Assembly: GCA_041659265.1 (NCBI GenBank)
Contig: JBAZYP010000009.1
Coordinates: 12,201-76,200, forward strand
Reading direction: 5' to 3'
Length of the DNA stretch: 64,000 bases
Origin: Candidatus Pacearchaeota archaeon
GTDB lineage: Archaea; Nanobdellota; Nanobdellia; Pacearchaeales; GW2011-AR1
The position numbers were made by a program, and so were the translations under genes. Below are positions 35,930 to 55,608 of this stretch, piece after piece; the stretch's first letter is position 1, and the number at the start of each line of letters is the position of its first letter. The notes below the pieces were generated by a model that had not been told where the DNA came from, searched no databases, and was given only the letters and a program-made list of their open reading frames with translations.

Positions 35930-36016
35930 GTCTTTATAAACCTTTTCATTAAGGTTTTTTAATAGTATATTTTTTCTTTCAAAAAGGTATATAAATTATA
36001 ATTGAGGTATTATATA

Positions 36017-37936
36017 ATGAATAGAATAAAGGGGCGGTATTATTTGGTGATAGGTTTATTTTACTTATTTTTTCTATTAAATTCAGTAATAATTGCTCAA
36101 GATGTAGAAACTGGGATGAATGTTACAGTTAGTCCTCCTATTCTTATTCAACTAATACCTAATTTTACATGGGAAACTAATCAAAATCTTACTAATGCCT
36201 TTTGTTTAGATGATTATTTTAAAGACCCTTCTGGATTTAGTTTAAATTATACATTTACCAGTGTTCCTAATATTCTTGTTGTGATTAATTCTACAACAAA
36301 TAATGTTTCTTTTTATCCTGATTTTGGATTTATGGGTATTAGGAATATAACTTTTTATGCTACCAATGATATGGGAACTACTCCAAGTAATCCTGTTACA
36401 TTATTTGTAAATTTAGATGACGAGGCACCTAAATGGAAGAATCCTGGAAAAAATAAAGTAAATGTTTATCAAAATGATTATGTAAATTTTACAACAACTT
36501 GGACTGACAATTATCAATTGCAGGGTTATACATTTTATTTAAGGCAACAAGGTGCTTGGGTTAGCACTCCTGGAAGTTTTAGTGGAATTGAAAATATTTC
36601 GAGAGCTAGTGCCCAGATAGTAAGTATTCCTGGAAATTTTATTTATTGGTATTTTTGCGCAAATGATACCTCTGCAAATTCAAATTGTACTGATTTATAT
36701 TCTTTTAATGTATCTGTGCCCCCTGTTGTTGATAATCCTCCATCTGTATCTCCCCCTTCATCAGGAGCAACTTCACCACCTCCTGCAACAACCACTCCAC
36801 CTGCAACTGGTGCTGCAGTAGTTCAATCTGAAGCAAAAAAGAAAATAAAGGATTTTTTAGTCGAACCCAGTTTTTTTAAGATTTCTATGAAACAAGCATC
36901 TGTTGATACTAGAATATTAAAAATAACTAATATAGGTAATACTGAAATTTTCATAAATTTGAGTCTTCTTGGTGTAGAAGATTTTGTCGTATTAAGTGAA
37001 AATTCATTTAATTTAACTAATGGCGAGGTTAAGAAAATTACAGTTGATTTCATAACAAAAAATAATACTGTTCCTGATCAATATTTTGGAAGAATAATAG
37101 TTTCTTCTTCTCAAATTCAAGAAGTTCCGGTTATTATTGATGTTAATCCTATTAATCAAAAATTTTCAGTTGATGTAAATATTTCTGAAAAATATAAGGT
37201 AGTTAAACCTGGTGAGATGGTACAAGCGAATATCATCATTAAGAACATAAAGGATATTACTCCTACAAATGTTAAATTACATATTGCTATAAAAGATTTT
37301 TCAGGAACAATTTATGATTCTTATGAGGAAGATATTCTTTTTGATGATACTTTAAATCTAATAAGAAATATCACTGTACCTTCAAATACAATTGTAGGGG
37401 AATATTTATTTTATGCTAGAATTTATGATGAAAATAATATTGCTATTGATTCAGATAGTTTTCAGGTTGGAACAAGATATTTATTAGCAGTTTATTTTAA
37501 AAAATATTTTTTATTTATTCTATTATTATTTTTATTTATTTTAACTATCTTTTTGATACTTAGATATAAAAAGGAAAGAGAGAAGGAACGAACTTTAACT
37601 CTTTATTTAATGCTTACAGAATTAAAGAATTTAATAAAAGATGGCAAGTTTGATAAAGCTGTACAATTATATATTAGAATAAAAACTATTTATGGCGAAC
37701 CTGTATCAAGAGCCAGTATTAAAGACAAAGAAAAATTAAAAGAAGAAATTGAAAAACTTTCTAATAAATTAAAGGGAGAATTGGAGACAGCAAAAGAAGC
37801 TAATTCAGATAAAGAAAAAAGCGATACAAAAAAATCTGAGGATATAAAAGAAGTCAATAAAGAAGAAACTATTGTAAAAAATGAAGAAAAAAAAGAAAGT
37901 GAAAATGAGGTAAAAAATGAAGAAAAAACCAAGTAA
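36017..37936 (+). CDS. surface protein: Ig-like N-domains, Pro-rich linker, two-domain juxtamembrane module, TM, helical tail
   Basis: Start set to ATG 36017 (signal ..FFLLNSVIIAQD). Has a PPSVSPPSSGATSPPPATTTPPATG linker, a module with DQYFGRIIVSS..VPVIIDV and VKPGEMV..VGEYLFY, TM FLFILLLFLFILTIFLIL, and a tail ..FDKAVQLYIRIKTIYGEP... Confidence 0.65.
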   Translation: MNRIKGRYYLVIGLFYLFFLLNSVIIAQDVETGMNVTVSPPILIQLIPNFTWETNQNLTNAFCLDDYFKDPSGFSLNYTFTSVPNILVVINSTTNNVSFYPDFGFMGIRNITFYATNDMGTTPSNPVTLFVNLDDEAPKWKNPGKNKVNVYQNDYVNFTTTWTDNYQLQGYTFYLRQQGAWVSTPGSFSGIENISRASAQIVSIPGNFIYWYFCANDTSANSNCTDLYSFNVSVPPVVDNPPSVSPPSSGATSPPPATTTPPATGAAVVQSEAKKKIKDFLVEPSFFKISMKQASVDTRILKITNIGNTEIFINLSLLGVEDFVVLSENSFNLTNGEVKKITVDFITKNNTVPDQYFGRIIVSSSQIQEVPVIIDVNPINQKFSVDVNISEKYKVVKPGEMVQANIIIKNIKDITPTNVKLHIAIKDFSGTIYDSYEEDILFDDTLNLIRNITVPSNTIVGEYLFYARIYDENNIAIDSDSFQVGTRYLLAVYFKKYFLFILLLFLFILTIFLILRYKKEREKERTLTLYLMLTELKNLIKDGKFDKAVQLYIRIKTIYGEPVSRASIKDKEKLKEEIEKLSNKLKGELETAKEANSDKEKSDTKKSEDIKEVNKEETIVKNEEKKESENEVKNEEKTK

Positions 37937-40409
37937 AACTTTAAAGAATTCTTTTTATCTGTTTTTTATTTTTTTATTAATATTTGGAATAATTTCTAAT
38001 GCAAATGTAAATGTACATGCAATTGATTCAGCATATGGGCCTAAAATTGAAAAAGAACTTTATACTATTTCAAGAAATAAAGTAGATAGGCTTGTTTATA
38101 AGGGAGATATATTTAGAGATTTTATTGATATTACTTATTCTGGAAGTTCTGGCTCTGAAGTTACTTTTGCGGTTAGCGATGAATTAACAGAAATTATTGA
38201 ATTTGAAACAGCAGGAGTTATTCTAAATTCCAATAATTATTCTAGAGCAAATTTTTTATTAAAGGGAAAGGAAATTGGTAATTATTCTGGATTTATTAAA
38301 TTAAAGGGAGGTATTATTGAAGATATTCCTGTAAATGTAACTGTAATTGAACCTAAAATAGATCCCCCATTAATAATAAGTCTTGAATTATCCGAGTCTA
38401 AGTTTGTTCTTAATAGGCCTTTTGAATTTAAGTTAAATATAAATAAATTAAAACCGGATTTTATAAACAACGTTTCAATTGCATATAGAATTAGGGACAG
38501 TAATAATAAAACTTTTTTTTTGGGTTCTGAACAATTAGATATTCAAACTTCTTTTCAAATTGTCAAGAAATTTAAAATACCTGATGAAATTGATGAAGGG
38601 CAATTTATTTTAGAATGTGAAACTCAATATGAGGATAAAAGGATAATTACTTCTTCAATATTCCTATTAAGAAGACCTTTTATGAAGATACTTATTTTTG
38701 GTTTTTTCCCAATGTGGTTGCTTATAACTATTTTAGGTTTGTTATTTTTTAGTGCTCTTGTTTTTTATCTTATAAGAATGAATTTAGCTAAAAGAAGAAA
38801 ATATCAGATGAAACTTGATTTAAAAACTATTCCTATAAAAGAACCTGGTTTTTTATTTTTAGGTAAAATTGCAGAGAAGAGCAATAAGGCTTATCTTGAT
38901 CCTTATAGGTTAACTACTCATAGTATTGTAGCAGGTGCTACTGGTGGAGGAAAATCAATTGCAGCTCAAGTAATTGTTGAAGAGGCCTTAATAAATAATA
39001 TTGCGGTTATTGTTATGGATCCAACTGCACAATGGTCCGGAATGCTAAGAAAATGTACTGATAAAAAGATGATGTCTTATTATCCTAATTTTGGTTTAAA
39101 AGAAACAGACTCAAGAGCATTCAAGGGTAATGTAAGACAAATAAAGAATGCTCGAGAAATAGTTCATGTTGAAAAATATATGAATCCGGGTCAAATACAG
39201 ATATTATCTCTTAATAAATTGGATCCAAAGGATATGGATTTTTTTATTGCTAATTTTATTAGGCAGATATTTAAGTCAGATCCTAAAGAATCTCCAAATC
39301 TTAAATTATTACTAGTTTTTGATGAGGTTCATAGACTTTTATCAAAATTCGGAGGTACTGGGGAAGGGTTTTTGCAAGTTGAAAGGGCATGCAGAGAGTT
39401 TAGAAAATGGGGTTTAGGAGTAATGTTAATCTCTCAGGTCTTAAATGATTTTGTTGGAGAAATTAAAGCAAATATTTCTACAGAAATTCAGATGAGAACT
39501 AGAGATGAAGGAGATTTAAAAAGAATTCAGACTAAATATGGTGATGAATTCTTACGTTCTTTAGTGAAAGCTTCTGTAGGGGTTGGTATGTTTGTAAATC
39601 CTGCTTATAATCATGCTAGACCTTATTTTGTAAACTTTAGGCCTATATTACATAATACTAGAAGATTGCCTGATGAAGAATTGGAACGTTATAATAAATA
39701 TAATGATATTTTGGAAGATTTAGAATTTCAGACAGATCAACTAGAGAAAGAAAAATTAGATGTTTTTGATCTTAAAATGGAATTAAAACTTGTTAAAGAT
39801 AAAATTATGACAGGAAATTTTTCGGTTGTAGAAATTTATTTAGAGGGATTAACTCCAAGAATTGCAAAAGAATGGGAAAAACTCGGGAAACAACCAAAGA
39901 AACTTGAAGTAGAACTTATTTCTGAAGATGAAATAAAAAAATCAATCGAAGAAGCAAAAAACGCAAGAAAAAAATATGAGCTTGAAGAAGCTAAGAAAAA
40001 AGCTAAAGATGAAAAAGAAGTAGTTAAAGCCCCGGAAAAAGAAAATCTTGATTTGAAAGAAGTTAATCCAATAACTTTTGATAATGGAATTATGGTTTCA
40101 AGTTTAAAAGAACTTAAAAGTGTTTTACCTACTATGGATATAAGTATTTTTAAAATTCATGTAAATGATCAAAAAAATGAGATTGCTGATTGGATAGAGA
40201 AAAATATATCTCCGGAGTTAGGGGTTAGATTAAAAGATGCTAAATTAAAATCACAAATGATTAAAGTTATGGATGATTTTGCTAAAGGAATTGTAGAAGA
40301 GAAGAAAGAAGAGAAGAAAGAAGAGAAGAAAGAAGAGAAGAAAGAAGAGAAAATAGTAGATAATAAATCTCCAGTAAATACAACCCCTGTAAATACGCCT
40401 CCAAAATAA
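37917..40409 (+). CDS. membrane-anchored FtsK/HerA-superfamily P-loop ATPase with extracellular N-terminal module (copy 1)
   Basis: Signal ..LIFGIISNANVNVHA, a ~230-aa ectodomain, TM ILIFGFFPMWLLITILGLLFFSALVFYLI and RRKY. Cytoplasmic part: IVAGATGGGKS (Walker A, 38941-38967), VIVMDPTAQW, LLLVFDEVHRL (Walker B, ~39306-39338) and GLGVMLISQ. 20-nt overlap with the upstream gene. Confidence 0.8.
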   Translation: MKKKPSKTLKNSFYLFFIFLLIFGIISNANVNVHAIDSAYGPKIEKELYTISRNKVDRLVYKGDIFRDFIDITYSGSSGSEVTFAVSDELTEIIEFETAGVILNSNNYSRANFLLKGKEIGNYSGFIKLKGGIIEDIPVNVTVIEPKIDPPLIISLELSESKFVLNRPFEFKLNINKLKPDFINNVSIAYRIRDSNNKTFFLGSEQLDIQTSFQIVKKFKIPDEIDEGQFILECETQYEDKRIITSSIFLLRRPFMKILIFGFFPMWLLITILGLLFFSALVFYLIRMNLAKRRKYQMKLDLKTIPIKEPGFLFLGKIAEKSNKAYLDPYRLTTHSIVAGATGGGKSIAAQVIVEEALINNIAVIVMDPTAQWSGMLRKCTDKKMMSYYPNFGLKETDSRAFKGNVRQIKNAREIVHVEKYMNPGQIQILSLNKLDPKDMDFFIANFIRQIFKSDPKESPNLKLLLVFDEVHRLLSKFGGTGEGFLQVERACREFRKWGLGVMLISQVLNDFVGEIKANISTEIQMRTRDEGDLKRIQTKYGDEFLRSLVKASVGVGMFVNPAYNHARPYFVNFRPILHNTRRLPDEELERYNKYNDILEDLEFQTDQLEKEKLDVFDLKMELKLVKDKIMTGNFSVVEIYLEGLTPRIAKEWEKLGKQPKKLEVELISEDEIKKSIEEAKNARKKYELEEAKKKAKDEKEVVKAPEKENLDLKEVNPITFDNGIMVSSLKELKSVLPTMDISIFKIHVNDQKNEIADWIEKNISPELGVRLKDAKLKSQMIKVMDDFAKGIVEEKKEEKKEEKKEEKKEEKIVDNKSPVNTTPVNTPPK
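40296..40352 (+). repeat. 12-bp tandem repeat GAAGAGAAGAAA x ~4.75 encoding (EEKK)n
   Basis: Read directly from the sequence, inside the C-terminal tail of ATPase copy 1. Confidence 0.85.
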
Positions 40410-40487: not shown

Positions 40488-41408
40488 ATGAATCTAATCA
40501 TAATTTTTATTATTCTAGGAGTTATCTTATTTTTTTTAATAATTTTTTTTGTTTTTGTTTATTTTTTAAACAAGAAAAAAGAAAGTAGATTGTTTGATGA
40601 TGAATCTAGCGGTTATTTTAGGAAATTTTTTAGAAGATTAAATCCATTTATTTTTTCTGATCAAGAGTTTAATGAAAATATGGAGGGTATTGGTGGAAAT
40701 AATGAAAATTTAAAAGAAAATCTTAAAAAGATAATGTTATCTAGTAATAAAATCACTAAAGATTCTCTTATTAATAAAACAAAAAATAAAAAAATTGATG
40801 AACTTAATAAAGAAAGTCAACCTAATCCTCCTATCTTAAATAATAAACCTATTGATAATAATTTACCTACTAATACTCCTGAAATTCCGAATAAACCTTT
40901 GGCTGTTACAAATGTTAATTTAAATGTAAAAGCAGGTGATAAAACTGTTGCACCCATAAATCCAGTTATACCGGCTCCTAAAAATCCTATAAAATCAAAA
41001 CTTCCTTCAAAACTTCCTTACGAAGGTCCAAAAACAGTTAATTTTGAAACTATTGTTGAAGCTGTAAAAGATGAAGAATTATTGATAATCTTAAAGGCTC
41101 TAAAGGAGAAGTATAATAAATTTCTTGAAAAAAGAACATTAAATAAAAACTTTAATTCTTATGAGGAGCTTCTTGATTTTTTAAAAAATGAGATAAAACT
41201 TTTTTTAAAAGATACTTATGAAGCATTAAAATCTGAGATTTCTACATTAAGAAGATCTGGAAAAGATACTAATGAGCAATCTATAAGGTTAATGTCTGTA
41301 CCTTTAAAGATAAAAATATATGAATCTAATCCCTCAATAAAAAATTTTAATAATGTTTTAGAAATTATTGGACATATTGAAGAAGGCATTAATAATCTTA
41401 AAAAATAA
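40488..41408 (+). CDS. N-terminally anchored protein with Pro-rich spacer and helical C-domain
   Basis: N-terminal TM IIIFIILGVILFFLIIFFVFVYFL, a P/N-rich stretch (..QPNPPILNNKPIDNNLPTNTPEIPNKP..) and a helical C-terminus. No family recognised. Confidence 0.45.
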   Translation: MNLIIIFIILGVILFFLIIFFVFVYFLNKKKESRLFDDESSGYFRKFFRRLNPFIFSDQEFNENMEGIGGNNENLKENLKKIMLSSNKITKDSLINKTKNKKIDELNKESQPNPPILNNKPIDNNLPTNTPEIPNKPLAVTNVNLNVKAGDKTVAPINPVIPAPKNPIKSKLPSKLPYEGPKTVNFETIVEAVKDEELLIILKALKEKYNKFLEKRTLNKNFNSYEELLDFLKNEIKLFLKDTYEALKSEISTLRRSGKDTNEQSIRLMSVPLKIKIYESNPSIKNFNNVLEIIGHIEEGINNLKK

Positions 41409-41439
41409 TTAGACTAAATAATTTGTTAATACTTAAGAT

Positions 41440-43134
41440 TTAATCTTCATCATCTTCCCTACGTTTAATAATAAATATGATTATAATCAGGATAATAATC
41501 AATATAATTAATATTATTATGATGTAGGTTATTAAAGTAAGATTTTCTATTCTTAAATCCATTTTATCTATAGTTAAAACATAGACAAGATTATCCTCTT
41601 TTTCACCTGAATAAACTGTAAGTTTTATAAATGGATTTTTTAATAAATCTTCTTCATTTAATTCTTCATGAATTAGAATGTCTTGTGATTTTTTACTTTT
41701 TATTAGAACAGATCCTTCTATACCTAATGTCCTTTTAGTATAACCCATTATTACATCTTTTAGCTCAAAATCTATCCAACAATCTATTTCATAGGGGTTA
41801 TTAATTCTTAATTTAAAATATTTTTTTTGTTTATTATATTTTAAGAATTTTATATCTTCTTTTGAAAGTTTGCATCTATCTAATACTTCTACTATTGTTA
41901 CATTTACTCTTGCAGTTAGAACTTTATCTAAAGAACTTGAAATTTCTCCTAATAGGGCATAAACATCTGCTTCTAATGTATCACCAACAGTAGCATTAAC
42001 AATATAACTTATTGTTTTATAATCTCCTGGAGCTATAAAAATAGGGTCTATATCTCCTACACGGATTCTATCTGTACCGGAGATTAATGTAATTGTTCCT
42101 TTTATAAATGCAGGGACATTAGAATCACTTTTATAGGTAACTTCTAATTGTTTTGTTGCTTTATTATATTTAATAGATTTAATAGAAATTTGAACATTTG
42201 GAGTTGGTAGTGGAAAGATATCTAACCCTTCAATAGCTGAAATTCCTTTTGTTTCTGCTCTTGCACCCCTAGCAAATTTAACCATAACACTAACTCCTGT
42301 ACTTCTCTTGATATTTGTTGCTGCCCCCACCAATTCATTTCCTACAAGAACACCAACTTCTATACCTGAATTTTTAAGATAATCTTTTATTTGATCTGGA
42401 ACATTTTCTCTTCCTGTGAAAAGCACTGGTTGAATTCCATTCATTAATTCTCTTTCTATAAATTCTCCATTTGTTAAAGCTACTTGCTTTGTTGGTTTAA
42501 TAGCTAAATATCTTTTAACTATTTCAATATTATCTTTAAATTTATCTTCGTTATCTATTACTTCTGGATTGTATTTATTTAACATATCCCTAACTTCTCT
42601 ATCAATATAACCGTAGATTATTATTTTTTTTATTGTTCTTTTAGAAAGAATATTCTCTATTTCCATACTATTTTGTCTATTTGCAAGAAATACCCAAGAT
42701 CTAGTTGTTACTGCATAGGGAGCTACAGCCATAGCGTTAAATCCATAGGAATCTCCAACAACAATAAAATTTTCAATATCAACTAAATCATTAATTAGTT
42801 CTAAATTGGCACTATCTACACTTAATTCATCAGCACCAGCAAAACTTTTAGAAGTTATAACATCTGGATAATTAAATACATAAGGTTTTGATTTAGATGT
42901 GATTACCCTTATACTGTTTTTTTTATCAATATTATTTAATAATAATTGACCGTGATTTGTACTTACAAGAAAATCACTACCTATTTTTTTAAGATTAGCA
43001 TAATGTATTGTTGAATATACATCCTGCCAATTTTCGGAATTTGATATCACATGGGTAATTTCTTGAGAACTAATAAAATTTATAGCTAATAAGGAAAATA
43101 ATACGCTTAAAAAAATTATACCACTCTTTTTCAT
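41440..43134 (-). CDS. surface protein: three alpha/beta repeats resembling cell-wall-binding repeat 2 (CWB2), Ig-like domains, C-terminal TM
   Basis: Signal ..LLAINFISSQE. Repeats such as ..FIVVGDSYGFNAMAVAPYAVTTRSWVFLANRQN..IKKIIIYGYI.. and TM ITYIIIILIILIIILIIIIFII plus an acidic tail. Confidence 0.45.
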   Translation of the reverse strand: MKKSGIIFLSVLFSLLAINFISSQEITHVISNSENWQDVYSTIHYANLKKIGSDFLVSTNHGQLLLNNIDKKNSIRVITSKSKPYVFNYPDVITSKSFAGADELSVDSANLELINDLVDIENFIVVGDSYGFNAMAVAPYAVTTRSWVFLANRQNSMEIENILSKRTIKKIIIYGYIDREVRDMLNKYNPEVIDNEDKFKDNIEIVKRYLAIKPTKQVALTNGEFIERELMNGIQPVLFTGRENVPDQIKDYLKNSGIEVGVLVGNELVGAATNIKRSTGVSVMVKFARGARAETKGISAIEGLDIFPLPTPNVQISIKSIKYNKATKQLEVTYKSDSNVPAFIKGTITLISGTDRIRVGDIDPIFIAPGDYKTISYIVNATVGDTLEADVYALLGEISSSLDKVLTARVNVTIVEVLDRCKLSKEDIKFLKYNKQKKYFKLRINNPYEIDCWIDFELKDVIMGYTKRTLGIEGSVLIKSKKSQDILIHEELNEEDLLKNPFIKLTVYSGEKEDNLVYVLTIDKMDLRIENLTLITYIIIILIILIIILIIIIFIIKRREDDED

Positions 43135-43281
43135 TAATGATACTCTTAAAGTTAAATATATAAAATTTTCTATATTATTTATTCTATTTTAAGTATAGAA
43201 TTTTATGATATTAATAGAGGTATCAAATTTAAGAGTGGAAAATATCTGAAACTTTATATACTTTGTTTTTTAATTTATAAT

Positions 43282-44091
43282 ATGTTTAATATCCTTTTTA
43301 ATCCTAAAAAAGCACAGAGACATCCAATAGAAATGATGTTTATTGGAATGTTTTATTCTTCTATTTCTATTTTATTAAGCGCATGGCTTTTTCCAGATCA
43401 TACTTCTCTAGTTATGGTATTTTTTACAGTTCTTTCTTGTTTATATGTTGTTCAGGGTGCAATAAAGCATGAAGAATCTATAGAAAGATCTTATAAAACT
43501 GAATTTTGGATATTAAAACATCATTCAAAACTTTTAGTTTTTTTATTATTTCTTTTTTTGGGATTTGTTTTTTCATTTGCTTTTTGGAGTTTCTTTTTAC
43601 CGGGTGATAATTCTAATAATGTTTTCGGGCTTCAAAAAGCGGTTGTTGAAGGTATAAAAACTAGTTCTATAAAGGGAGATTTTACAAATTCTAATCAGGT
43701 TATTTTTGCTATTTTAGCAAATAATTTGAAGGTTAGTATTCTTTCTTTAGTTTTAGCATTTTTTTATGGTGCTGGAGCAATATTTGTTTTAGTATGGAAT
43801 GCTAGTGTAATGGGTTTAGTTATTGGTAATTTAGCAAAAGTTAAATTTGGAATATTAGGGCTTCCTATAGCATTTACAAAATATTTTGTTCACGGGATTC
43901 CTGAAATGCTTGCATATTTAGTTGTTGCAATAGCTGGAGGGATAATTTATACTGCGGTTTGGAAAGGGGATTTTTTGAAATATGGCAGATCAAAAAAGAT
44001 TTTTCTTGATGTAATTGTTTTAATATTTATCTCCTTATTATTATTAGTATTTGCAGCATTAATTGAAGTATACATTTCTCCTTATATCTAA
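43282..44091 (+). CDS. SpoIIM/DUF95-family integral membrane protein
   Basis: ..ILANNLKVSILSLVLAFFYGAGAIFVLVWNASVMG.. and ..FVHGIPEMLAYLVVAIAGG.. are the hallmark segments as I recall the family. Confidence 0.65.
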   Translation: MFNILFNPKKAQRHPIEMMFIGMFYSSISILLSAWLFPDHTSLVMVFFTVLSCLYVVQGAIKHEESIERSYKTEFWILKHHSKLLVFLLFLFLGFVFSFAFWSFFLPGDNSNNVFGLQKAVVEGIKTSSIKGDFTNSNQVIFAILANNLKVSILSLVLAFFYGAGAIFVLVWNASVMGLVIGNLAKVKFGILGLPIAFTKYFVHGIPEMLAYLVVAIAGGIIYTAVWKGDFLKYGRSKKIFLDVIVLIFISLLLLVFAALIEVYISPYI

Positions 44092-44374
44092 TTTGATAGA
44101 TTTGATTTATATTAATAATTTATATCTATGAAATTCATGATTAAGATTAGGTTCGTATAAATTATTATTAAAAATTATTAAAAAGATGAGAGGAAAAAAA
44201 TCCTTGTTATAAATTGGAGTTAATATTTTAGGCTTTGTTACGGAGTTCTTTAAACTCCGAATAAGAACGCAACTATTAAAGGCTAATAAGACAAAAGTTT
44301 CTTAAAAAATAATCATTTCGGACAGAGCGATATTTTAGATAAATTTATAAATAAAGATTTATTTATTTGGATAT

Positions 44375-44404
44375 AAAAAGTACATAAAAAGTACTTTAAA
44401 AGTA
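44375..44404 (+). promoter_or_regulatory. three direct AAAAGTA(C) repeats at 11-bp spacing next to a TATA-like box, just upstream of the AbrB-like gene
   Basis: AAAAAGTAC at 44375-44383 and 44386-44394, and AAAAGTA at 44398-44404. ATATAAAA lies at 44371-44378 and the ATG at 44409. Confidence 0.35.
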
Positions 44405-44408
44405 TCAA

Positions 44409-44585
44409 ATGACGGAAATCTTATTTAAAGGATCTAAAATTCAGACTGGAGAAAGAATAAAAATTCCTAAACCTATAGTAGATACTCTAAACCTTTATTC
44501 TGGCCAAGGGATTATAATTATTTTTGATGCTGAAAAAAAAGAAATAATTATTAGAGAAGAAAAGAATAAAAAAGATAAAAAATGA
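44409..44585 (+). CDS. AbrB/SpoVT-type (swapped-hairpin) DNA-binding protein, 58 aa, absent from ORF track
   Basis: MTEILFKGSKIQTGERIKIPKPIVDTLNLYSGQGIIIIFDAEKKEIIIREEKNKKDKK*. It shows the ..RIKIPKPIVDTLNL..G..I.. pattern. Its TGA overlaps the ATG of the next gene (ATGA at 44582-44585). Confidence 0.55.
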   Translation: MTEILFKGSKIQTGERIKIPKPIVDTLNLYSGQGIIIIFDAEKKEIIIREEKNKKDKK

Positions 44586-46465
44586 ACATAATTAAACATC
44601 TAAATAAATTTAGTATTGTCCTATTAGCCTTTATTTTAGCATTGCAGCTAGTTTCAGCTTCTCATTATATAACTGGTTATGTTCATGATTCTTTAGATTC
44701 ATTAGAAAGTGCAAATGATAAACAAGTTATTTTATGGAATCCAATTATAGGTATGCAAGAGAATATTAGTGATATTATTGGAATAAATGGAAATTCTGAA
44801 TCTTCAAATACTTTTATGTTTGATTGTGAATTATTGAATAATTCTTGTAAAATTGGAGATATTTTTAAGGTTAAAACTTTAAATGATGGAGATAATTATT
44901 TTAGTGAAGAAGAATCAGTAATTATTAGTGGTGCAGGTTATGATATAACTCCGGATTTAATTTTAAATAGTCCTCCTAATATAACTTTAAATTTTCCATT
45001 AGAGCAAGGAAATGAAAGTAGAACGGTTCGTTTTAATTGTTCTATTTTTGATTTAGATTCTAACCTTCATAATGTTAGTTTGTATGGTAATTGGACCGGG
45101 ACTTGGCATTTAAATGAGACTATAGAAACTCTGGGTGGGGCGACTTCAGTTTTATTTGAAAAAAATCTAAGCGAGGGAGAATATTCTTGGAACTGTTTAA
45201 GCTATGATAATTTATCTATATCTGGATTTAATTATAAAAATAATACATTTAGAGTAGATACAACTAGCCCTGTAATATCCCAGATTTCTGTTAATTCCAC
45301 TTATGGGTGTGGAAATTCTTATATTAATGTAAATTGCTCTGCAATTGATAGTTATGTGGGCATTGATAGTGTAATAATTCAAGCATTAAAACCTAGTGGA
45401 AGTGCTTTTTATCCTGCAAATATTTTAATACCGGGAGTATATTCTACAGAGATATTATTAGATGAAGGAGGTAATTGGAGTTTTATTTGTATTGCAAATG
45501 ATAGTTCATCAAATATTGCAAATCTTTCTTCCAATATAATAAGAGTTTATTCTTTAACTGAAAATGAGATATATGTTAATTATTCTAAAATCTATTTTGG
45601 TAATGAAAAACCAATTGAAACTGAAGAAGTAATTATTAATGCAACAATTGAGAATAGGGGATGCTCTAATTTAAATAATTTTTTAGTAGGATTTTTTAAT
45701 GGTGAACCTACTTTAGGCAATCAAATAGGAAATAATTTAACTATTTCCATACCCGGTTTTTCAAGTCAGATTGTTAATATAAGCTGGAGTGCATTAATTG
45801 GATTAACAAATATATTTATTTTTGCAGATTTAAATGATTCCATAATTGAAATAAATAATAATAACAATATTGCTAATAAGACAATAATTGTTGGTTCTTG
45901 GCAGACTTTTTATGGAAATGTGACTCTTGATAAAATTCTTGCAGATAGTTTGTTCTTTAATTTTAGTTCATGGTATAATGAATCTGAACCAATGGGAAAT
46001 ATATTTGTAGCAGATAAAGAGTCTAATATTAATTGGGCGGCATTATATCCTATTGGAAGAAATATTAGTGGAGATTTAAAGAATGATGATTTTTCTAATA
46101 TAGATAATATTTTTAATACTGCTGAATTTAATGATTCAGTAGAAAAACTTTATTCTACTTTTGGAAATTCTAAATTTAGTGATAGTTTTTTTATTCATCA
46201 TCGTAATTTAACAAATGTTCCTATTTTAAATTCAACTAATTCATCTAATTTTATTACTGGAATTCTTTGGGATTCTGCTAAAGATAGTGGTAATGGGGAG
46301 TTTGATGTTATAGATAAAGAAGATATTGTATTTGTAACAAAAATAAATAAGGCTAGTCCTGGTGGTTATGGCATATATGATTATGAAATAACCATCCCAG
46401 TTAGATTAAGAGAGTTCAATAGTCTTGATAGTAGTGAAATCTATTTTTATTATGAACTTGAATAA
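44582..46465 (+). CDS. secreted protein: HYITGYV N-domain, Ig-like repeats, C-terminal WQxFYGN..YFYYELE domain
   Basis: Signal ..ILALQLVSAS. The N-domain is paralogous to 60248-61513, and the C-terminal ~190 aa are paralogous to 53939-54724 and 55609-56391. Confidence 0.65.
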   Translation: MNIIKHLNKFSIVLLAFILALQLVSASHYITGYVHDSLDSLESANDKQVILWNPIIGMQENISDIIGINGNSESSNTFMFDCELLNNSCKIGDIFKVKTLNDGDNYFSEEESVIISGAGYDITPDLILNSPPNITLNFPLEQGNESRTVRFNCSIFDLDSNLHNVSLYGNWTGTWHLNETIETLGGATSVLFEKNLSEGEYSWNCLSYDNLSISGFNYKNNTFRVDTTSPVISQISVNSTYGCGNSYINVNCSAIDSYVGIDSVIIQALKPSGSAFYPANILIPGVYSTEILLDEGGNWSFICIANDSSSNIANLSSNIIRVYSLTENEIYVNYSKIYFGNEKPIETEEVIINATIENRGCSNLNNFLVGFFNGEPTLGNQIGNNLTISIPGFSSQIVNISWSALIGLTNIFIFADLNDSIIEINNNNNIANKTIIVGSWQTFYGNVTLDKILADSLFFNFSSWYNESEPMGNIFVADKESNINWAALYPIGRNISGDLKNDDFSNIDNIFNTAEFNDSVEKLYSTFGNSKFSDSFFIHHRNLTNVPILNSTNSSNFITGILWDSAKDSGNGEFDVIDKEDIVFVTKINKASPGGYGIYDYEITIPVRLREFNSLDSSEIYFYYELE

Positions 46466-46473
46466 TTATAAAA

Positions 46474-47142
46474 TTATTCTTTTTTTCCTTGAAGTAATTT
46501 TTCAGCTATAAGTTCGTCTGGCCTTTTTTCTACAACCACTTCTTCTTTTTTTCTTTTTAAAATTTTTTTAAAAATCTTTGAAACAATAGTGAAAATATTT
46601 AGTATTATTTTTTTAATAAACCTTAAAATCCCCATAATAATTTTTATAATCAATTTTATTAAGGATAGAATAAACTTTTTAATCATGTTAATGATATTTT
46701 TTATAATTCTTTTTATTTCATTATAGGTTAGTTTAAAGAATAATCTGGTTTTTAAAATGCCGCGTATAAGAAAATTGGGCATTAATTTATGAAAAATTTT
46801 TCTAAAATTTATTTTAAATTTAAATCTGAACATTTCCCATTTTAAACTAATTTTTTCCTTAATAGAAAGTTCCAGATTTAATCGCTTAACGGTAAAATGT
46901 TCTTCTTTATTTTTTTCTTTTTTTATTGCTTTTTTTTTCTCATTTATATAAAGTCTTTTTTGTTCATCAATAAATTTTTTATATTTTAATTCATATGCAA
47001 TACGTGCTTTGTTAAGTTTTTCTTTGTAATCCTTTTCTCTTGAAATTTTGATTGGATATTTTTTAAAATCTTCAAGATACTCTCTATCTATTCTTTCTAT
47101 TTCATGTTTATAAAATTCTTCAATATCATCCGCGTTTTCCAT
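46474..47142 (-). CDS. hypothetical basic protein with amphipathic/hydrophobic C-terminal half
   Basis: 222 aa, K/I-rich (..IINMIKKFILSLIKLIIKIIMGILRFIKKIILNIF..). No family recognised. Confidence 0.4.
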   Translation of the reverse strand: MENADDIEEFYKHEIERIDREYLEDFKKYPIKISREKDYKEKLNKARIAYELKYKKFIDEQKRLYINEKKKAIKKEKNKEEHFTVKRLNLELSIKEKISLKWEMFRFKFKINFRKIFHKLMPNFLIRGILKTRLFFKLTYNEIKRIIKNIINMIKKFILSLIKLIIKIIMGILRFIKKIILNIFTIVSKIFKKILKRKKEEVVVEKRPDELIAEKLLQGKKE

Positions 47143-47144
47143 TT

Positions 47145-47456
47145 TTATTTACAATAACAATCACATTTATGGCAGGAATTCTCTTGAAAACTAAATTCAA
47201 CTCTAAAAAATTTCATCTTTCGAATATTGCACTCATTATAGCATCTAATTTTGCATTTATCTTCATTTTCAATTTGATGAAGAATAGTATTCATTATTAG
47301 AGAACATTCATCTTTTAATTCAATTAGGGAAGGTTCTTTATTTATATTTTTTATCTTATCATAAAATCCAAATTCTGATAAAATCAATGAGGTTAAAATT
47401 ACCAAGAGAACAATTGTTATTATAATAAGCTTCTTACTAATCTTCTTCTTTTTCAT
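47145..47456 (-). CDS. small N-terminally anchored Cys-rich protein
   Basis: Start trimmed to ATG 47456 (MKKKKISKKLIIITIVLLVILTSLILS..). The ectodomain has 8 Cys and ends ..SCHKCDCYCK. Confidence 0.4.
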   Translation of the reverse strand: MKKKKISKKLIIITIVLLVILTSLILSEFGFYDKIKNINKEPSLIELKDECSLIMNTILHQIENEDKCKIRCYNECNIRKMKFFRVEFSFQENSCHKCDCYCK

Positions 47457-48168
47457 TTTCCTTGCTTTTTCTTTTACAAATCTCAACAAAATCAGCAAGC
47501 ATCATTTTTAATTCTTTTTCTTGTTCTTTAATCTCTTCTTCTTTTTCAACCATATTAAAATATATATTTTGCCATTCTTTTTCTAAATCTTTGAGATTTT
47601 TTGTTTTTTCAGAAATTCTCTCCTGAAAATTTTTGCTTAACATTTTTATTACCGTATTATTCTTCTTTCCTTCCCAATGTTTTTTCATATCCTTAACAAT
47701 ATCTCTTGAAACAAATTTTTTCTTATACCAATCTTCTAATTCTTCTATATTTGTAATTTCTTTATCAATATTTTCTTTTAGTTCAGAAAAATAACTTTCT
47801 TCAGAATCAAATTCCATTGCAGGTTCATTTTTGTTTAAAGAAAATTCTTTATGTTGAAAATGTGGTTTATGATGTTTTGGTTTTATTTTAGGATGAAGAT
47901 TCGTATTTTCAATAATAACTTCAGTTGTTTTAACTGGTTCAATTACTTCATCAGAGTTATTAGATTCAATTGGAGTAATAATTGGTTTAAAACCTATTTC
48001 TTCTCTTGATTCTTCTTGAGATTCTATAAGCGGATTAAACTCATCTTCATTTAAAGAAGTTTTTTTTAGGGGTTTTTCAGGTTCAATTTTTTCTTGCATT
48101 TCGTCTGTCACTAATTCTGGAAGTTCATCAGGTGCTGATTTGCTCTTAAAAATACCAAAAAGTCCCAT
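47437..48168 (-). CDS. hypothetical acidic protein with MGLFGIFKSK N-terminus
   Basis: 243 aa with no TM. Amphipathic N-terminus, acidic middle and helical C-terminus. Confidence 0.45.
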   Translation of the reverse strand: MGLFGIFKSKSAPDELPELVTDEMQEKIEPEKPLKKTSLNEDEFNPLIESQEESREEIGFKPIITPIESNNSDEVIEPVKTTEVIIENTNLHPKIKPKHHKPHFQHKEFSLNKNEPAMEFDSEESYFSELKENIDKEITNIEELEDWYKKKFVSRDIVKDMKKHWEGKKNNTVIKMLSKNFQERISEKTKNLKDLEKEWQNIYFNMVEKEEEIKEQEKELKMMLADFVEICKRKSKENEKEED

Positions 48169-48280
48169 TTTATTTAACCCCTTTAATAAATAGAAAAAGA
48201 CGAAAATTCTTTAAATACTTTTCGGTATCTTGTCTTCGAATTTTAATAAAGTTTATTAATTGTTTTTGGGACTTATATAT

Positions 48281-51200
48281 ATGCATTTTAATAAAAATTC
48301 AAAAGAGGCATTAGATATTGCTAAAAAAGAGATTAGAAAAGCAAAAATAGAAAAATTTGTTTTTTTGTTTTTTTTGTTTTTAACATTAATCTCTTGTTCT
48401 TTTTTAGTAGTTTTTTTATCATCTAAATTAATGATGACTGGATATGCATCTTATATAGAAGGAAGGGCTGGATATATCACTGAATTAAATATAACTCAAA
48501 CATTTATACCTGATTATTGGAGTGGGGTATATGGATTATCTTTAAGGGTTCCAGGTTATTTTAGTCAGATAATAAGAGAAGTTCCTAATTCTGAGATAGT
48601 TGAAGCTCCTTCTTATTTTGATTGTATACAAACAGATGCATTAGGTGGTCCTGAAATTTATGCAACTACCGCATCTTCAATAGATTTTAATTCATTAAGG
48701 CCTGCTACACTTGCAGAATTAGATTCCTATGTCGGATGCAGCGGATCTTTCCAATGTCCGAGTAATACTTTTACCAGTATTAATAGCTATGTCGTTGGAA
48801 CAAATAATATTACAGATGTTCCATCTACTTATACTTATAGATTTGATGGAAATCAAGGAACTTTTGATGTTGGAGCTTTAAATGATTCAGTTAATTTAGT
48901 ATTTGTTAGTCATTTAGCAGCAATTCAAAAGGGTTATAGTTCTACAAAGACAGTAAATTTTCAGATGCTTCTTCCAACATTACCCAACACTACTGTTGAT
49001 TATTATTTTTTTAATGATCCTAATGATGAATGTCCTGCTGGTGGAATTGGGAATAATATTAACGCTTCTGTTTATGGATATTCATTTGATATTTATAATA
49101 ATACTCTTCCTAATGTTACAGTTACTGTTGCAGGGTATAGTGCTGTAACTGACTCTAATGGATTTTATAATTTTTCATTTACAGTTAGTCCTGGAGTTTA
49201 TAATCTTATTGCCCAATTAGCTGGATATGATCCTTATTTTGACAATGTATCTGTAACTTTTTCTGAAAATGTTTTTGAAAGAAATATTACTATGGTAATC
49301 ATTACTCCTGGAATGAATGATACTATTTCCCCTATTGTTGATGGTTTTGTTTGGGATGAATCTTTAATCCCCATATCTGGTGCTAATGTATCTATGTCTG
49401 GAACTTCAAATGTTACCGACTCTAATGGATATTATTCAATATCACCTATAATTTTTCCAGGATTAAGTCCGATTATAGCTATAAATGAGGGCTATAATAA
49501 TTATTTTTATTTTTTAAGTTTTGATGATAACACTACTTATATAAATCATAATATTACCATGACTGTTGCTTCAACTAATTATCAATTTCCAACTGGCCCC
49601 TATACATCTGGCCCTTATACAACTGGCCCTTATCCTCAACAATTTCAACCTCAAATCATTCAAGCTAAGAAGAATGGAGAAGACTTTTGGATAAGCACTA
49701 AAGAAATAAGAAAGGAAGTAAGACAAAATACTTTTGTTGATGAAAAAATAGGTCTTTTTAATTTTAAAACTTCTACAATGAATATGTTATTTTCTTTATC
49801 TCCCAATCTTCAGGATTTTGTTAAAATAGATAAAACATCTGTTGTATTAAATCCTAATTCTTTTGCAGATGTAACTGTTACAATCTATGGAACGAAACCC
49901 CTTGGAGTTTATAATGGGTCTATAACTGTTTCTGGTGATGTGCAACAGACTATTCCTGTTCATATTACTGTTGTTGAAAAAAGATCTTTAGTTGAAGCTT
50001 TATTAATGCAAATAGATGTTTTTAATAAAATAGTAAGGCCTGGAGATACTGTAAAATATAAATTAAGTCTGCAAAATCTTTTAAGAGAACAAGGATATAA
50101 AGTATTTTTAAAAATTTATTTGACAGAATCTAATGGTACTACAATTTATGCTACTGATAATGATGAAGTGGAAATATTAAATTCTTTAACTTTGTTAAAA
50201 GAACTTAAATTGCCAGATAATATAACTGAAGGAGATTATTTATTAAATGTTGATGCAACGTATTTAAATCTTTTTTCAAGTGTAACTGCACCAGTAAAAA
50301 TAACTAAACCAATTTATTTATATTCCTTTTTAGGAATGCCTTTATGGTTATGGTTTTCATTGATTTCTTTCTTTAGTTTTATTTTATTAAATTTTTTAAT
50401 TTATAAATATTATAAAGAAAAGAAGAAGAGATACAAGATATTTTTAGATTACAATACTTTACCAAAACCTGGAACGGGTGTTGTAAGGCTAGGAAATATT
50501 GCTGAAACAAAAGTTCCAGCTTATTATGAACTTGAAAGATTAACAACTCACTGTATTGTTGCTGGGGCTACAGGAATGGGAAAATCAATTTCAGCTCAAG
50601 TTATAATTGAAGAAGCTTTAATGAATAATATCGCAGTAATTGTTATGGATCCAACTGCACAATGGTCTGGAATGTTAAGAAAATGTACTGATAAAAAAAT
50701 GATGTCTTTTTATCCTAAATTTGGATTAAAAGAAACTGATGCAAGAGCCTTTAAGGGAAATGTAAAACAGATAAGAGATGCTAAAGAGATAATTGATATA
50801 ACCAAATACATGACCCCTGGCCAAATACAGATTTTTTCAATGAATAAATTAGATCCAAAGGATATTGATATTTTTGTTGCTAATTTTATTAGACAGATTT
50901 TTAGATCAGATCCTAAAGAATCTCCAACTTTAAAAGTATTACTTGTTTTTGATGAGGTTCATAGACTTTTATCAAAATTCGGAGGAAGTGGAGAAGGATT
51001 CTTGCAAGTAGAAAGATCTTGTAGAGAGTTTAGAAAATGGGGATTAGGAGTAATGTTGATATCTCAAGTCTTAAATGATTTTGTTGGTGAAATTAAAGCA
51101 AATATTAATACAGAAGTTCAAGCAAGAACTCTTGAAGAGTCAGATCTTGATAGAATAAAAACTAAGTATGGGGAAGAATATCTTAAATCATTAGTAAGGG

Positions 51201-52012
51201 CTGAAGTTGGTGTTGCAATGTTTCAAAATGCTGAATATAATAGAGGTAGACCTTATTTTTTGAATTTTAGGCCTATATTACATAATACCAGAAGACTTCC
51301 TGATGAGGAACTTGAAAAGTATAATAAATATAATTTCCAGGTTGAAGATTTAGAATATCAAATCGAACAGCTTGAAAAAGAAAAATTAGATGTTTTTGAT
51401 CTAAAAATGGAATTAAAACTTGTTAAAGATAAGATTATGACTGGAAATTTTTCGGTTGTAGAAATTTATCTTGAAGGATTGGTTCCTAGAGTTGCTAAAG
51501 AATGGGAAAAACTTGGAAAACAACCAAAGAAATTGCAAACTCAATTATTATCTGAAGAAGAAATAAAAAAAGCTATGGAACAAGAGAAAAAAGAAAAAGA
51601 AGCATTAGCTGCAAAAGAAGAAAAGAAAGTTGAAGCAAAACCAATCGAGAAGCCTGTTGAAACTCAGGCAGTTAAACAAACTAATCCTGCTACAAATAAA
51701 ACTTCTGTTAATATTGTTAAACCTAATACTTCTATTCTACAACAAACTACAAAACCAGCAAGTTTAGTTAAACCAAATAATCCTTCTACTCAAAAAGTTA
51801 CAACCGTTATACCAACTAACGCTACAACTAAACCAGTAGTATTAGCTAAACCCGTTATTCCTTCTGCACCAGCAACAAAACCCGCAGTAGTAGTTAAACC
51901 AGCAACTCCTGTTGTTCAAACATCTAAACCAACGGTTATAACTAAACCTGCGGTGCAGTCTGTTCAAACCACTAAACTTGCTGAAACAAAAAAAGAAGAA
52001 GTAAAAAAATAA
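48281..52012 (+). CDS. membrane-anchored FtsK/HerA-superfamily P-loop ATPase with large extracellular N-terminal region (copy 2)
   Basis: Start set to ATG 48281. Signal anchor FVFLFFLFLTLISCSFLVVFL, two carboxypeptidase-regulatory-like units (..VTDSNGFYNFSF..), a (TGPY)x3 repeat, the juxtamembrane module and a TM. Cytoplasmic part: IVAGATGMGKS (50561-50587), VIVMDPTAQW, LLVFDEVHRL (~50941-50965) and a K/P/T/V-rich tail. Confidence 0.8.
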   Translation: MHFNKNSKEALDIAKKEIRKAKIEKFVFLFFLFLTLISCSFLVVFLSSKLMMTGYASYIEGRAGYITELNITQTFIPDYWSGVYGLSLRVPGYFSQIIREVPNSEIVEAPSYFDCIQTDALGGPEIYATTASSIDFNSLRPATLAELDSYVGCSGSFQCPSNTFTSINSYVVGTNNITDVPSTYTYRFDGNQGTFDVGALNDSVNLVFVSHLAAIQKGYSSTKTVNFQMLLPTLPNTTVDYYFFNDPNDECPAGGIGNNINASVYGYSFDIYNNTLPNVTVTVAGYSAVTDSNGFYNFSFTVSPGVYNLIAQLAGYDPYFDNVSVTFSENVFERNITMVIITPGMNDTISPIVDGFVWDESLIPISGANVSMSGTSNVTDSNGYYSISPIIFPGLSPIIAINEGYNNYFYFLSFDDNTTYINHNITMTVASTNYQFPTGPYTSGPYTTGPYPQQFQPQIIQAKKNGEDFWISTKEIRKEVRQNTFVDEKIGLFNFKTSTMNMLFSLSPNLQDFVKIDKTSVVLNPNSFADVTVTIYGTKPLGVYNGSITVSGDVQQTIPVHITVVEKRSLVEALLMQIDVFNKIVRPGDTVKYKLSLQNLLREQGYKVFLKIYLTESNGTTIYATDNDEVEILNSLTLLKELKLPDNITEGDYLLNVDATYLNLFSSVTAPVKITKPIYLYSFLGMPLWLWFSLISFFSFILLNFLIYKYYKEKKKRYKIFLDYNTLPKPGTGVVRLGNIAETKVPAYYELERLTTHCIVAGATGMGKSISAQVIIEEALMNNIAVIVMDPTAQWSGMLRKCTDKKMMSFYPKFGLKETDARAFKGNVKQIRDAKEIIDITKYMTPGQIQIFSMNKLDPKDIDIFVANFIRQIFRSDPKESPTLKVLLVFDEVHRLLSKFGGSGEGFLQVERSCREFRKWGLGVMLISQVLNDFVGEIKANINTEVQARTLEESDLDRIKTKYGEEYLKSLVRAEVGVAMFQNAEYNRGRPYFLNFRPILHNTRRLPDEELEKYNKYNFQVEDLEYQIEQLEKEKLDVFDLKMELKLVKDKIMTGNFSVVEIYLEGLVPRVAKEWEKLGKQPKKLQTQLLSEEEIKKAMEQEKKEKEALAAKEEKKVEAKPIEKPVETQAVKQTNPATNKTSVNIVKPNTSILQQTTKPASLVKPNNPSTQKVTTVIPTNATTKPVVLAKPVIPSAPATKPAVVVKPATPVVQTSKPTVITKPAVQSVQTTKLAETKKEEVKK

Positions 52013-54724: not shown

Positions 54725-54992
54725 ATTTAATTTTTATATCTAAATTTTAATTTTTTTTATTTGAATTGCAAGTTTTTTTTATTTTTAGGTTTTTTAACCC
54801 TTAAAAAAGCAATTTATATCTATTTTAGTAATTAATTAAATAGTATATTAAATTTAAAAGAATTATAATTTTATTTTAATTATAATTTTAATGAGTTATT
54901 TACTTTTAAAGCTTTAATTAATTAATTAAACATAATATTTAAATAGTCTTGATATTTATTTACTTAAAAGAGGTATAATAAAGAAATAAGTC

Positions 54993-55604: not shown

Positions 55605-55608
55605 ATAG

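Follow-up and report, generated by a model that had tools for sequence, protein, structure and literature searches.

The stretch of DNA analysed here comes from Candidatus Pacearchaeota archaeon (assembly GCA_041659265.1, contig JBAZYP010000009.1, positions 12,201 to 76,200 of the forward strand). It is 64,000 nt long, is called the window below, has a G+C content of about 26% and includes housekeeping genes for SRP54, FtsY, NDK and DAHP synthase. Our subject is the open reading frame (ORF) at 37917..40409 on the plus strand, which starts with ATG and encodes a protein of 830 amino acids (aa), here termed copy 1. A Shine-Dalgarno-like GAGGT lies 6 nt 5' of this ATG, within the 3' end of the upstream gene B644 (36002..37936, plus strand), and the two genes overlap by 20 nt. 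An initial annotation, made from the letters alone, had described copy 1 as an extracellular module joined through a transmembrane (TM) segment to a cytoplasmic ATPase. The ORF and every motif quoted for it were found again at the same positions, and the gene overlap is real; in homologous loci the motor gene and its upstream neighbour overlap by 14 nt and 4 nt.

Domain layout and topology of copy 1

A monomer model of copy 1 was built with AlphaFold2 from an alignment of 66 homologs (mean pLDDT 83.8). From the N-terminus onward it shows a helix at aa 5-30, beta-sandwiches at aa 44-144 and at aa 152-252, the TM helix at aa 266-292, the ATPase core with its alpha/beta fold (aa 313-575), a stretch of helices over aa 586-704, a small domain at aa 719-794 and finally a disordered tail rich in K and E. 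The first 35 residues (37917..38021) form a Sec-type signal peptide with a K-rich n-region, an h-region and a predicted cleavage site between VHA and IDSAYG. The first Ig-like sandwich (38046..38348), placed outside the cell, was modelled at a pLDDT of about 85-90, is supported by Foldseek and is rich in sequons; the second (38370..38672), recognised by AlphaFold2 and Foldseek, is membrane-proximal. The TM helix and its KR-rich stop-transfer sequence (38688..38804) were assigned from hydropathy, the AlphaFold2 model and positive-inside statistics. The hydrophobic core, ILIFGFFPMWLLITILGLLFFSALVFYLI, spans aa 258-286 and is followed by RMNLAKRRKY (aa 287-296). At the outer edge of the TM segment a motif FGFxPxW is conserved, as are G262, W267, K295 and Y296, and both hydropathy and the family alignment show the TM sequence to be fully hydrophobic.

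The orientation of the protein was judged from the 66 aligned members. Nearly all of them carry the same signal layout, i.e. a K/R n-region, an h-region and [VLI]-x-A before S, followed by a conserved S-A-Y-G. N-glycosylation sequons occur at 2.52 per 100 aa in the ectodomain vs 0.40 in the cytoplasmic part (p=8e-13), and the 15 residues after the TM helix contain 5.2 K+R vs 2.3 in the 15 residues before it (p=1e-12). Therefore, from the Sec signals, the sequon bias and the K/R bias, the ectodomain lies outside and the ATPase inside. The N-terminal region is thus not predicted to be cytoplasmic, and the order ectomodule, TM segment, stop-transfer and cytoplasmic P-loop ATPase given by the initial annotation is supported by AlphaFold2, the topology statistics and Pfam. 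With the predicted cleavage of the signal, the mature protein would have one TM helix.

When the ectodomain was compared with the Protein Data Bank (PDB) by Foldseek, tandem Ig-like sandwiches were retrieved, namely ASH/PapD-like ciliary proteins, CEP192 SPD-2, RbmA and WxLIP. No Pfam family matched the ectodomain of copy 1, even at E<=10; weak MG2-type matches were seen only in copy 2 (the second motor gene of the window, see below) and B644. The ectomodule had been labelled Ig/CARDB-like. Since the fold and the outside location are supported and Pfam gave no match, the first half of that label is upheld, and CARDB in particular is not supported by any match.

Downstream of the ATPase core lies a helical domain that runs into a long K/E-rich helix (39672..40028; aa 586-660, with the helix reaching aa 704). 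In the model its helices occupy aa 586-611, 617-632, 635-656 and 670-704, and many alignment columns are near-invariant up to aa 658. It is followed by an OrfY/DUF5752-like C-terminal module (40059..40298, aa 715-794), which is present in one to three copies in relatives and is repeated, for example, in members P0122 and P0132. Pfam DUF5752 scores 14.9 bits on it (E=0.017), below the cut-off of 23. When the module was modelled alone (pLDDT 87.5), the sole meaningful fold match was OrfY of Thermoproteus tenax (4cso), itself a weak one (Foldseek TM-score 0.53-0.55, rmsd 2.2-2.9 A, E 0.3). The profile score and the fold match are thus two weak signals in agreement, which hint at an OrfY-like module. 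In one relative of 4192 aa (P0159), which has a subtilase near its N-terminus, DUF835 stands at residues 4071-4186 (39.4 bits, above cut-off) in place of the OrfY-like modules.

Taken together, copy 1 is with high probability a type-I single-pass membrane protein composed of a Sec signal, Ig-like sandwiches, one TM helix, a HerA/DUF87 ATPase, a helical domain and an OrfY/DUF5752-like module. This layout is not a product of chance, because it recurs in all of the 120 best homologs, bar evident N-terminal fragments, and in 150 representatives of 50% clusters.

A HerA-clade ATPase on a surface protein

The cytoplasmic ATPase core (38853..39641, aa 313-575) was identified by Pfam, a PDB profile search and Foldseek. 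It carries Walker A GATGGGKS (38934-38957, aa 340-347), the D368 block DPTAQW (39018-39035, aa 368-373), Walker B LLLVFDEVH (39306-39332, aa 464-472), an arginine-finger motif REFRKWG (39393-39413) that contains R496, and the SQ block MLISQ (39423-39437, aa 503-507, with SQ at 506-507). The initial annotation had placed this domain in the FtsK/HerA-like P-loop class and proposed a comparison with the DUF87/HerA, FtsK_SpoIIIE, VirB4 and VirD4 profiles, with a better fit to ABC or AAA+ ATPases as the result that would speak against it. The class was assigned from ranked profile scores together with fold matches. With the isolated domain, DUF87 (PF01935) reached 46 bits (cut-off 23.2) and HerA_C (PF05872) 35.3 bits (cut-off 22), so that both passed; with the full protein the values were 37 and 30 bits respectively, against the same cut-offs. 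Copy 2 scored 48.2 bits with DUF87. FtsK_SpoIIIE (PF01580) stayed below its cut-off of 24 with either the full protein or the isolated domain (15.2-16.6 bits), and so did T4SS-DNA_transf (15.9 bits, cut-off 20.1) and TrwB_AAD_bind (12.3 bits, cut-off 20.5) with the isolated domain. The VirB4/TraG-like model AAA_10 was borderline, with 25.2 bits for the full protein and 28.2 bits for the isolated domain at a cut-off of 27.5. The domain proved to be neither ABC nor AAA+. The search of the family profile against all PDB sequences at E<=1 returned HerA-clade chains only and no FtsK chain. By Foldseek against the PDB the best match of the core was HerA 4d2i (E 4e-11, TM-score (target) 0.43-0.44), and further matches were 9x1m, 8xau, 8woc and 9c1m, hexameric HerA translocases that include SIR2-HerA and HerA-DUF4297; TcpA, an FtsK-like coupling protein, appeared only at rank 49. 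Pfam, the PDB profile search and Foldseek thus uphold the P-loop class first proposed and narrow it to the HerA/DUF87 clade.

Within this clade no named family accommodates the protein. The NCBIfam models helicase_HerA NF040819 (15.2 bits vs cut-off 970), HerA_antiphage NF042943 (15.5 bits vs 800), CedD NF053655 (23.7 bits vs 600), TraC TIGR02746 (23 bits vs 567) and TIGR03743 for TraD (17.5 bits vs 366) all score far below their cut-offs, and copy 1 and its relatives therefore form a distinct HerA-clade family, outside any named one.

In HerA of Sulfolobus four residues are essential, namely K154, D176, E356 and R381, the last being an arginine finger that works in trans (PMC4351679). K346, D368, E470 and R496 of copy 1 align with these four and are invariant in 66 family sequences, and the arginine-finger motif reads REGRKFG in HerA vs REFRKWG here. 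An intact arginine finger that acts in trans points to an active site between subunits, i.e. to a ring, and on this basis of sequence the motor domains are predicted to assemble as a hexamer. There is no room for a HAS-barrel, because only about 20 residues lie between the end of the TM helix (about aa 292) and the start of the first strand of the ATPase (aa 313). Nor was a VirB4-like N-terminal domain found in the AlphaFold2 model.

The window contains a second motor gene, copy 2 (48260..52012, plus strand), whose product of 1250 aa has an ectodomain of about 630 aa including CarboxypepD_reg, and Walker A GATGMGKS at 50564-50587. Starting midway in the first sandwich, copy 2 is 55% identical to copy 1, and both copies were found in at least 11 genomes among the GTDB species representatives. 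The translationally coupled gene B644 encodes a third protein of the kind signal peptide, ectodomain and TM segment, in which a TPR-like cytoplasmic tail replaces the motor. The initial annotation had claimed that the upstream gene encodes the same ectomodule without the motor. Direct BLASTP between copy 1 and B644 detected no similarity; profile-profile alignment with hhalign, in contrast, matched aa 46-262 of copy 1 to aa 282-500 of B644 with a probability of 99.2% (E 1.3e-19), which confirms this claim. The two-sandwich module and the TM segment are therefore common to copy 1, copy 2 (hhalign 100%) and B644.

Extent of the family and its conserved neighbourhood

In a database clustered at 90%, 561 of 8000 candidates scored were matches to the family. 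Their source names are all Pace-, Woese- or Nanoarchaeota or unclassified archaea, and their annotations read only 'DUF87 domain-containing protein', 'ATP-binding protein' or similar; 'hypothetical protein' is also used in the family. At least 573 coding stretches of the family were counted among the GTDB species representatives, and a HMMER search with the cytoplasmic part alone among 50% cluster representatives gave 373 matches at E<=1e-30 and 1159 at E<=1e-3. The 120 best homologs share the one layout, bar the fragments mentioned, and fall into a short class with GATGGGKS and a long class with mostly GATGMGKS. Six loci (L018, L051, L058, L073, L074 and L079) come from metagenome-assembled genomes labelled 'Diapherotrites' or 'uncultured Methanosarcinales'. 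These labels are probably taxonomic mislabels or binning errors; if they were right, the family would reach beyond Nanoarchaeia. A plasmid search returned only soluble haloarchaeal DUF87 proteins of at most 29% identity and in uninformative context, and gave no link to mobile elements.

The motor stands at the C-terminal end in every one of the 150 representatives of 50% clusters, and the order in the retrieved members is signal, sequon-rich ectodomain, membrane-proximal module, one TM helix, KR stop-transfer and motor. The shortest protein has 333 aa and the longest 6253 aa; among the best 150 representatives, about 46 are longer than 2000 aa. The ectodomain measures from about 200 aa to about 5300 aa with a median of about 740 aa; in the tree of the motor domains short and giant forms are interleaved, and some of the short entries are perhaps fragments. 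A Pfam scan of two giant ectodomains revealed Peptidase_S8, Laminin_G_3, Beta_helix, NPCBM_assoc and sialidase-N, which indicates that the ectodomains are built of adhesin, lectin, beta-helix and protease modules. The initial annotation knew of no described family of this kind. In the searchable literature on DPANN archaea, HerA, FtsK and DUF87, we likewise found no description of the family or of a fusion of motor and ectodomain; the scale, however, had been underestimated, as ectodomains of thousands of residues exist.

Gene neighbourhoods were counted over 80 related loci. Every gene of the window between 32.1 and 62.6 kb belongs to the recurrent set, which can be described as two modules. 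The first comprises A1193 and s82 on the minus strand, divergent from B644 and copy 1 on the plus strand, followed either by D306, E564, SpoIIM, F627 and g243 or by F627, K739, J417, L421 and s105. The second comprises g243, copy 2, h285, i261, a winged helix-turn-helix (wHTH) regulator, i260 and further genes. In distant Woesearchaeota three genes on the same strand make up the core, namely the motor, h285 and, immediately 5' of the motor, an A1193-like gene. B644 was detected in 37 of the 80 loci, in each of them immediately 5' of a copy-1-type motor. In one locus (L001) a gene of at least 1160 aa at 19245-22337, just past a compact cluster, runs off the locus end and perhaps encodes that genome's copy-2-type motor.

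Of all the partners, h285 (52406..53263, plus strand) accompanies the motor most constantly; it is a cytoplasmic coiled-coil protein whose gene lies directly 3' of almost every copy-2-type motor and of some copy-1-type motors (33 of the 80 loci). The same arrangement is seen with a giant member of 4862 aa, encoded on a 620-kb contig amid housekeeping genes, where a homolog of h285 is directly downstream. The best 120 of 446 homologs of h285 are 59-82% identical to it, bar one exact match, and bear generic coiled-coil names only. The source names 'chromosome segregation ATPase' and 'SbcCD' given to h285 are coiled-coil artefacts. A relationship of h285 or g243 to ESCRT-III/PspA-like proteins, considered in view of their MGLF-type N-termini, was rejected, as neither Snf7 nor PspA_IM30 matched in Pfam at E<=0.05.

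A1193 (32110-35691, minus strand) is a large surface protein of signal peptide, ectodomain and TM segment with homologs in 50 of the 80 loci. A1193, B644 and K739 all have this build, and end in cytoplasmic tails of about 115 aa with a common TPR-like motif, [ED]-A-x3-Y-x2-[IL]-K-x2-Y-x2-L-[PS]. The motif usually occurs twice in A1193, in whose tail (32110-32460) two were found, and it also ends 3 of 270 motor proteins (P0125, P0128 and P0175). This suggests that the motif is a common cytoplasmic docking module. A role of A1193 as a fusogen was considered; nothing speaks for it, though no test was aimed at it. For h285, i261 and A1193 sequence searches gave no solved relatives. The start of A1193 is overlapped by s82 (35681-35929, minus strand; 28 of the 80 loci), whose product of 82 aa (TVVVKGTITDNQRDILQKLV...) resembles a ribbon-helix-helix regulator and has no Pfam match.

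Between the two motors (40488..48168) lie accessory genes with Pfam matches to SpoIIM and CARDB-like families. They are D306 (40488-41408, plus), E564 (41440-43134, minus), a polytopic protein of the SpoIIM/DUF95 family (43282-44091, plus; 55.5 bits in Pfam, 13 of the 80 loci), the Sec-signal secreted protein F627 (44582-46465, plus), g222 (46474-47142, minus) and g243 (47437-48168, minus); D306, E564, F627, g222 and g243 are co-localised with motors in other genomes as well. On the 3' side of copy 2 follow, all on the plus strand and all recurrent (53939..62598), i261 (53939-54724), the wHTH regulator, i260 (55609-56391), J417, K739 (57713-59932), s105, L421 (60248-61513) and M377. J417 matches CARDB, K739 is a paralog of A1193, and M377 (61465-62598; 8 of the 80 loci) is polytopic with an HExxH motif (HEFGH) and a weak Peptidase_M50B-like match. 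The scanned cluster genes gave no match to a nuclease (NurA included), a pilin, a VirB6-like protein or a DNA-processing domain, and beside the giant member no polytopic protein is directly adjacent, the nearest being a Peptidase_A24 gene two genes upstream.

Some further features of these secreted proteins were noted. i261 and i260 are paralogs of 54-57% identity that flank the wHTH regulator. They share with F627 a Sec signal and a C-terminal motif Y[FY]YxEL[EQ] (YYFYLELE in i261, YYFYLELQ in i260, IYFYYELE in F627), and the three may be subunits of an assembled surface structure. F627 and L421 have in common an N-terminal domain of about 125 aa right after the signal, with 43% identity (..HYI[TV]GYV..). 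Outside the cluster, large proteins with signal peptides are encoded at 8940-11312, 14652-16409 and 22058-25360, one of them 1100 aa long with four fn3 domains and a C-terminal TM segment, and the window is unusually rich in surface proteins. Within a few kb of each other are the genes for SRP54 and for an FtsY-like SRP receptor (20551-21927 and 25392-26972, minus strand); the latter protein has 526 aa and its SRP54-family domains start only at about residue 240. An SRP54 gene is also found near a giant family member (locus L082).

What the motor may do

The motor was compared with known systems. Archaeal HerA, the helicase of HerA-NurA DNA-end resection (4d2i, 9x1l), is alike in the DUF87/HerA core, by profile and by fold, and in the catalytic set that is kept. 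It differs in that the HAS-barrel is here replaced by a signal peptide, two Ig-like domains and a TM helix, that the protein is membrane-anchored with extra helical and OrfY-like modules, and that no NurA partner occurs in the scanned cluster genes. CedB and CedD are a TM-anchored, HerA-clade pair of paralogs in one crenarchaeal DNA-import system, with a VirB4-NTD-like domain between TM segment and ATPase that is treated as part of the cytoplasmic ring, and with a VirB6-like channel (CedA/CedE) and a pilin as partners (PMC11868833). Our proteins resemble them in being archaeal, TM-anchored, of the HerA clade and paired; unlike them, they have a large extracellular N-terminal part, and no channel or pilin partner was found in the 80 loci. 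FtsK/SpoIIIE and VirD4/TrwB/TcpA belong to the same superfamily and likewise place a membrane anchor at the N-terminus and a ring motor at the C-terminus, with TcpA as a weaker fold match; the models FtsK_SpoIIIE, T4SS-DNA_transf and TrwB_AAD_bind, in contrast, all remain below their Pfam cut-offs here. The anchors of FtsK/SpoIIIE and of type IV coupling proteins are polytopic or made of two helices, with very small external loops. EccC/EssC of the type VII secretion system (T7SS) are membrane-anchored ATPases of the FtsK-HerA superfamily that work for a surface or secretion system and not on DNA. They are of the FtsK clade, with multiple ATPase domains, a cytoplasmic N-terminus, tiny external loops and substrates without Sec signals, and they gave no match in the profile or structure searches made here.

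The mechanism that we favour, tentatively and with clearly less than even confidence, is ATP-driven mechanotransmission to the ectodomains. Six motor domains would form a HerA-like ring flat on the cytoplasmic side of the membrane, and above it would rise six TM helices and as many ectodomain arms. Subunit movements driven by ATP would be relayed by the TM helices and the conserved stalk to the arms, so that these and the partner surface proteins might move, cluster, extend or retract. The partners would dock by their cytoplasmic tails and h285. The outcome would be ATP-powered work outside the cell, e.g. capture of, or action on, the envelope of a host or neighbour cell. Copy 1 with B644, and copy 2, could make two rings, or mixed rings, of one apparatus. 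The logic would be analogous to that of MacB/FtsEX or FtsH, whose cytoplasmic ATPase subunits have an extracytoplasmic domain of their own; in MacB/FtsEX hydrolysis drives work outside without transport. This is an analogy only, as the ATPase classes are unrelated (AAA+ and ABC), FtsH has a fused protease and no relationship in sequence or fold was found. Mechanotransmission is favoured because the TM helix is wholly hydrophobic, because the conserved core supplies neither a polytopic channel nor a nuclease, pilin or DNA-processing partner and because each subunit is joined covalently and at short range to the stalk; it gains support because the ectodomains resemble devices of host interaction. 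An aqueous channel made by the protein itself is argued against by the hydrophobic TM helix, the linker of about 20 residues and the polytopic proteins, which occur in only 13 and 8 of the 80 loci and do not flank the giant member.

Several points weigh against mechanotransmission. Both the ring and the transmission of force are predictions from sequence and a monomer model. We know of no HerA-clade protein that acts in this way, and the characterised members (HerA-NurA, SIR2-HerA, HerA-DUF4297 and CedB/CedD) act on DNA. A rotary or staircase cycle is not evidently convertible to movement through one TM helix per subunit. If the signal, predicted to be cleaved, were retained, every subunit would have a second TM helix, which is the arrangement of VirD4-type coupling proteins. 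The gene for a channel partner may lie in another part of the genome, and the argument from context is only negative, since h285, A1193 and the OrfY-like module have no known function.

The main rival is a contact-dependent DNA translocase, in which the ring would pump DNA across the membrane, taking it up from a host or neighbour or exchanging it with one, and the ectodomain would serve as dock or adhesin, making the system the DPANN counterpart of Ced, of type IV coupling proteins or of FtsK/SpoIIIE. The action on DNA of the characterised HerA-clade proteins and the retained HerA catalytic set favour it, as do the reduced biosynthesis of these archaea, the parallel with Ced, which imports DNA with two paralogous TM-anchored HerA-clade ATPases where here too there are two paralogs per genome, and the short linker from TM helix to ring, which sets the ring axis on the membrane as in a trans-membrane pump. 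However, an aqueous pore for DNA cannot be lined by TM helices that are wholly hydrophobic and number only one per subunit, and among the scanned genes of the 80 loci none in the conserved core encodes a VirB6/CedA-like channel, a pilin, a nuclease, a relaxase or a DNA-binding partner. The CedD, FtsK and VirD4 models also fall below their cut-offs (CedD 23.7 bits vs 600), and the known membrane DNA pumps expose very little outside the cytoplasm, in contrast to the ectodomains of up to about 5300 residues seen here. We regard a DNA translocase as doubtful. A platform for handling proteins would instead thread or pull the tails of A1193, B644 and K739, or else h285, and so insert, extract, assemble or turn over a surface structure, in the manner of pilin dislocation by VirB4, of T7SS EccC or of FtsH. 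The single-pass partners with conserved TPR-like tails of about 115 aa, whose motif also ends three motor proteins, the shared C-terminus of i261, i260 and F627, which suggests an assembled structure, the conserved neighbourhood and the borderline AAA_10 score of the isolated domain (28.2 vs 27.5) are consistent with such a platform. It seems distinctly unlikely all the same, as all the putative substrates have Sec signals and need no dedicated exporter, giant members have only h285 adjacent, the motor has no fused protease domain and no HerA-clade protein is known to translocate polypeptides.

Two other explanations carry far less weight. HerA was reportedly proposed by Iyer et al. in 2004 as the archaeal counterpart of FtsK, and the present protein, anchored in the membrane, might do the work of FtsK in chromosome segregation or cell division, given that the gene is chromosomal, widespread and found amid housekeeping genes, and that h285 is highly conserved. 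Hypervariable ectodomains with lectin, protease and beta-helix modules would be unexpected in a division protein, however, as would two or more paralogs per genome and surface-protein genes as neighbours, and the cluster has no division genes; such a role is very improbable. Still less to be expected is an anti-virus HerA system with an extracellular sensor. The PADLOC models HerA and mad8 do match the ATPase core at 41-45 bits, and many of the HerA proteins among the PDB matches are defence components. Yet the PADLOC matches are limited to the generic core, no partner matches any defence model, HerA_antiphage scores 15.5 bits vs 800, no effector such as SIR2, a nuclease or DUF4297 is present, and near-universal presence and synteny in the lineage are unlike defence islands.

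Mechanotransmission by a membrane-anchored HerA ring, identity and mechanism taken as one account, is in our judgement the best explanation overall, and is held with just under even confidence. A wider form of it, a 'motor-adhesin' in which the HerA ring and h285 would use ATP to move or retract six arms of up to about 5300 residues, equipped with lectins, beta-helices and proteases, or else to open a conduit at the site of contact, appears somewhat unlikely; if true, it would be the missing energised device by which DPANN of the Woese- and Pacearchaeota type seize, breach or exchange with their hosts.

Membrane-anchored members of the superfamily known to us (FtsK, SpoIIIE, VirD4, EccC and CedB/D) have minimal external parts only. 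The present family extends the FtsK-HerA superfamily by a motor that is the cytoplasmic tail of a surface protein, a fusion of which the current annotation, 'DUF87 domain-containing protein' or 'hypothetical protein', gives no clue, and it is a real possibility that the system as a whole represents a surface machine of a new kind. It raises the question whether a HerA-type ring can send energy outward instead of pumping a polymer. The family, which is large, lineage-wide and syntenic, offers concrete candidates for the molecules with which genome-reduced DPANN attach to other cells and take from them, in which ectodomains of the host-interaction type are joined to an ATP-driven ring motor with defined catalytic residues and defined partners (h285, B644 and A1193 among others).

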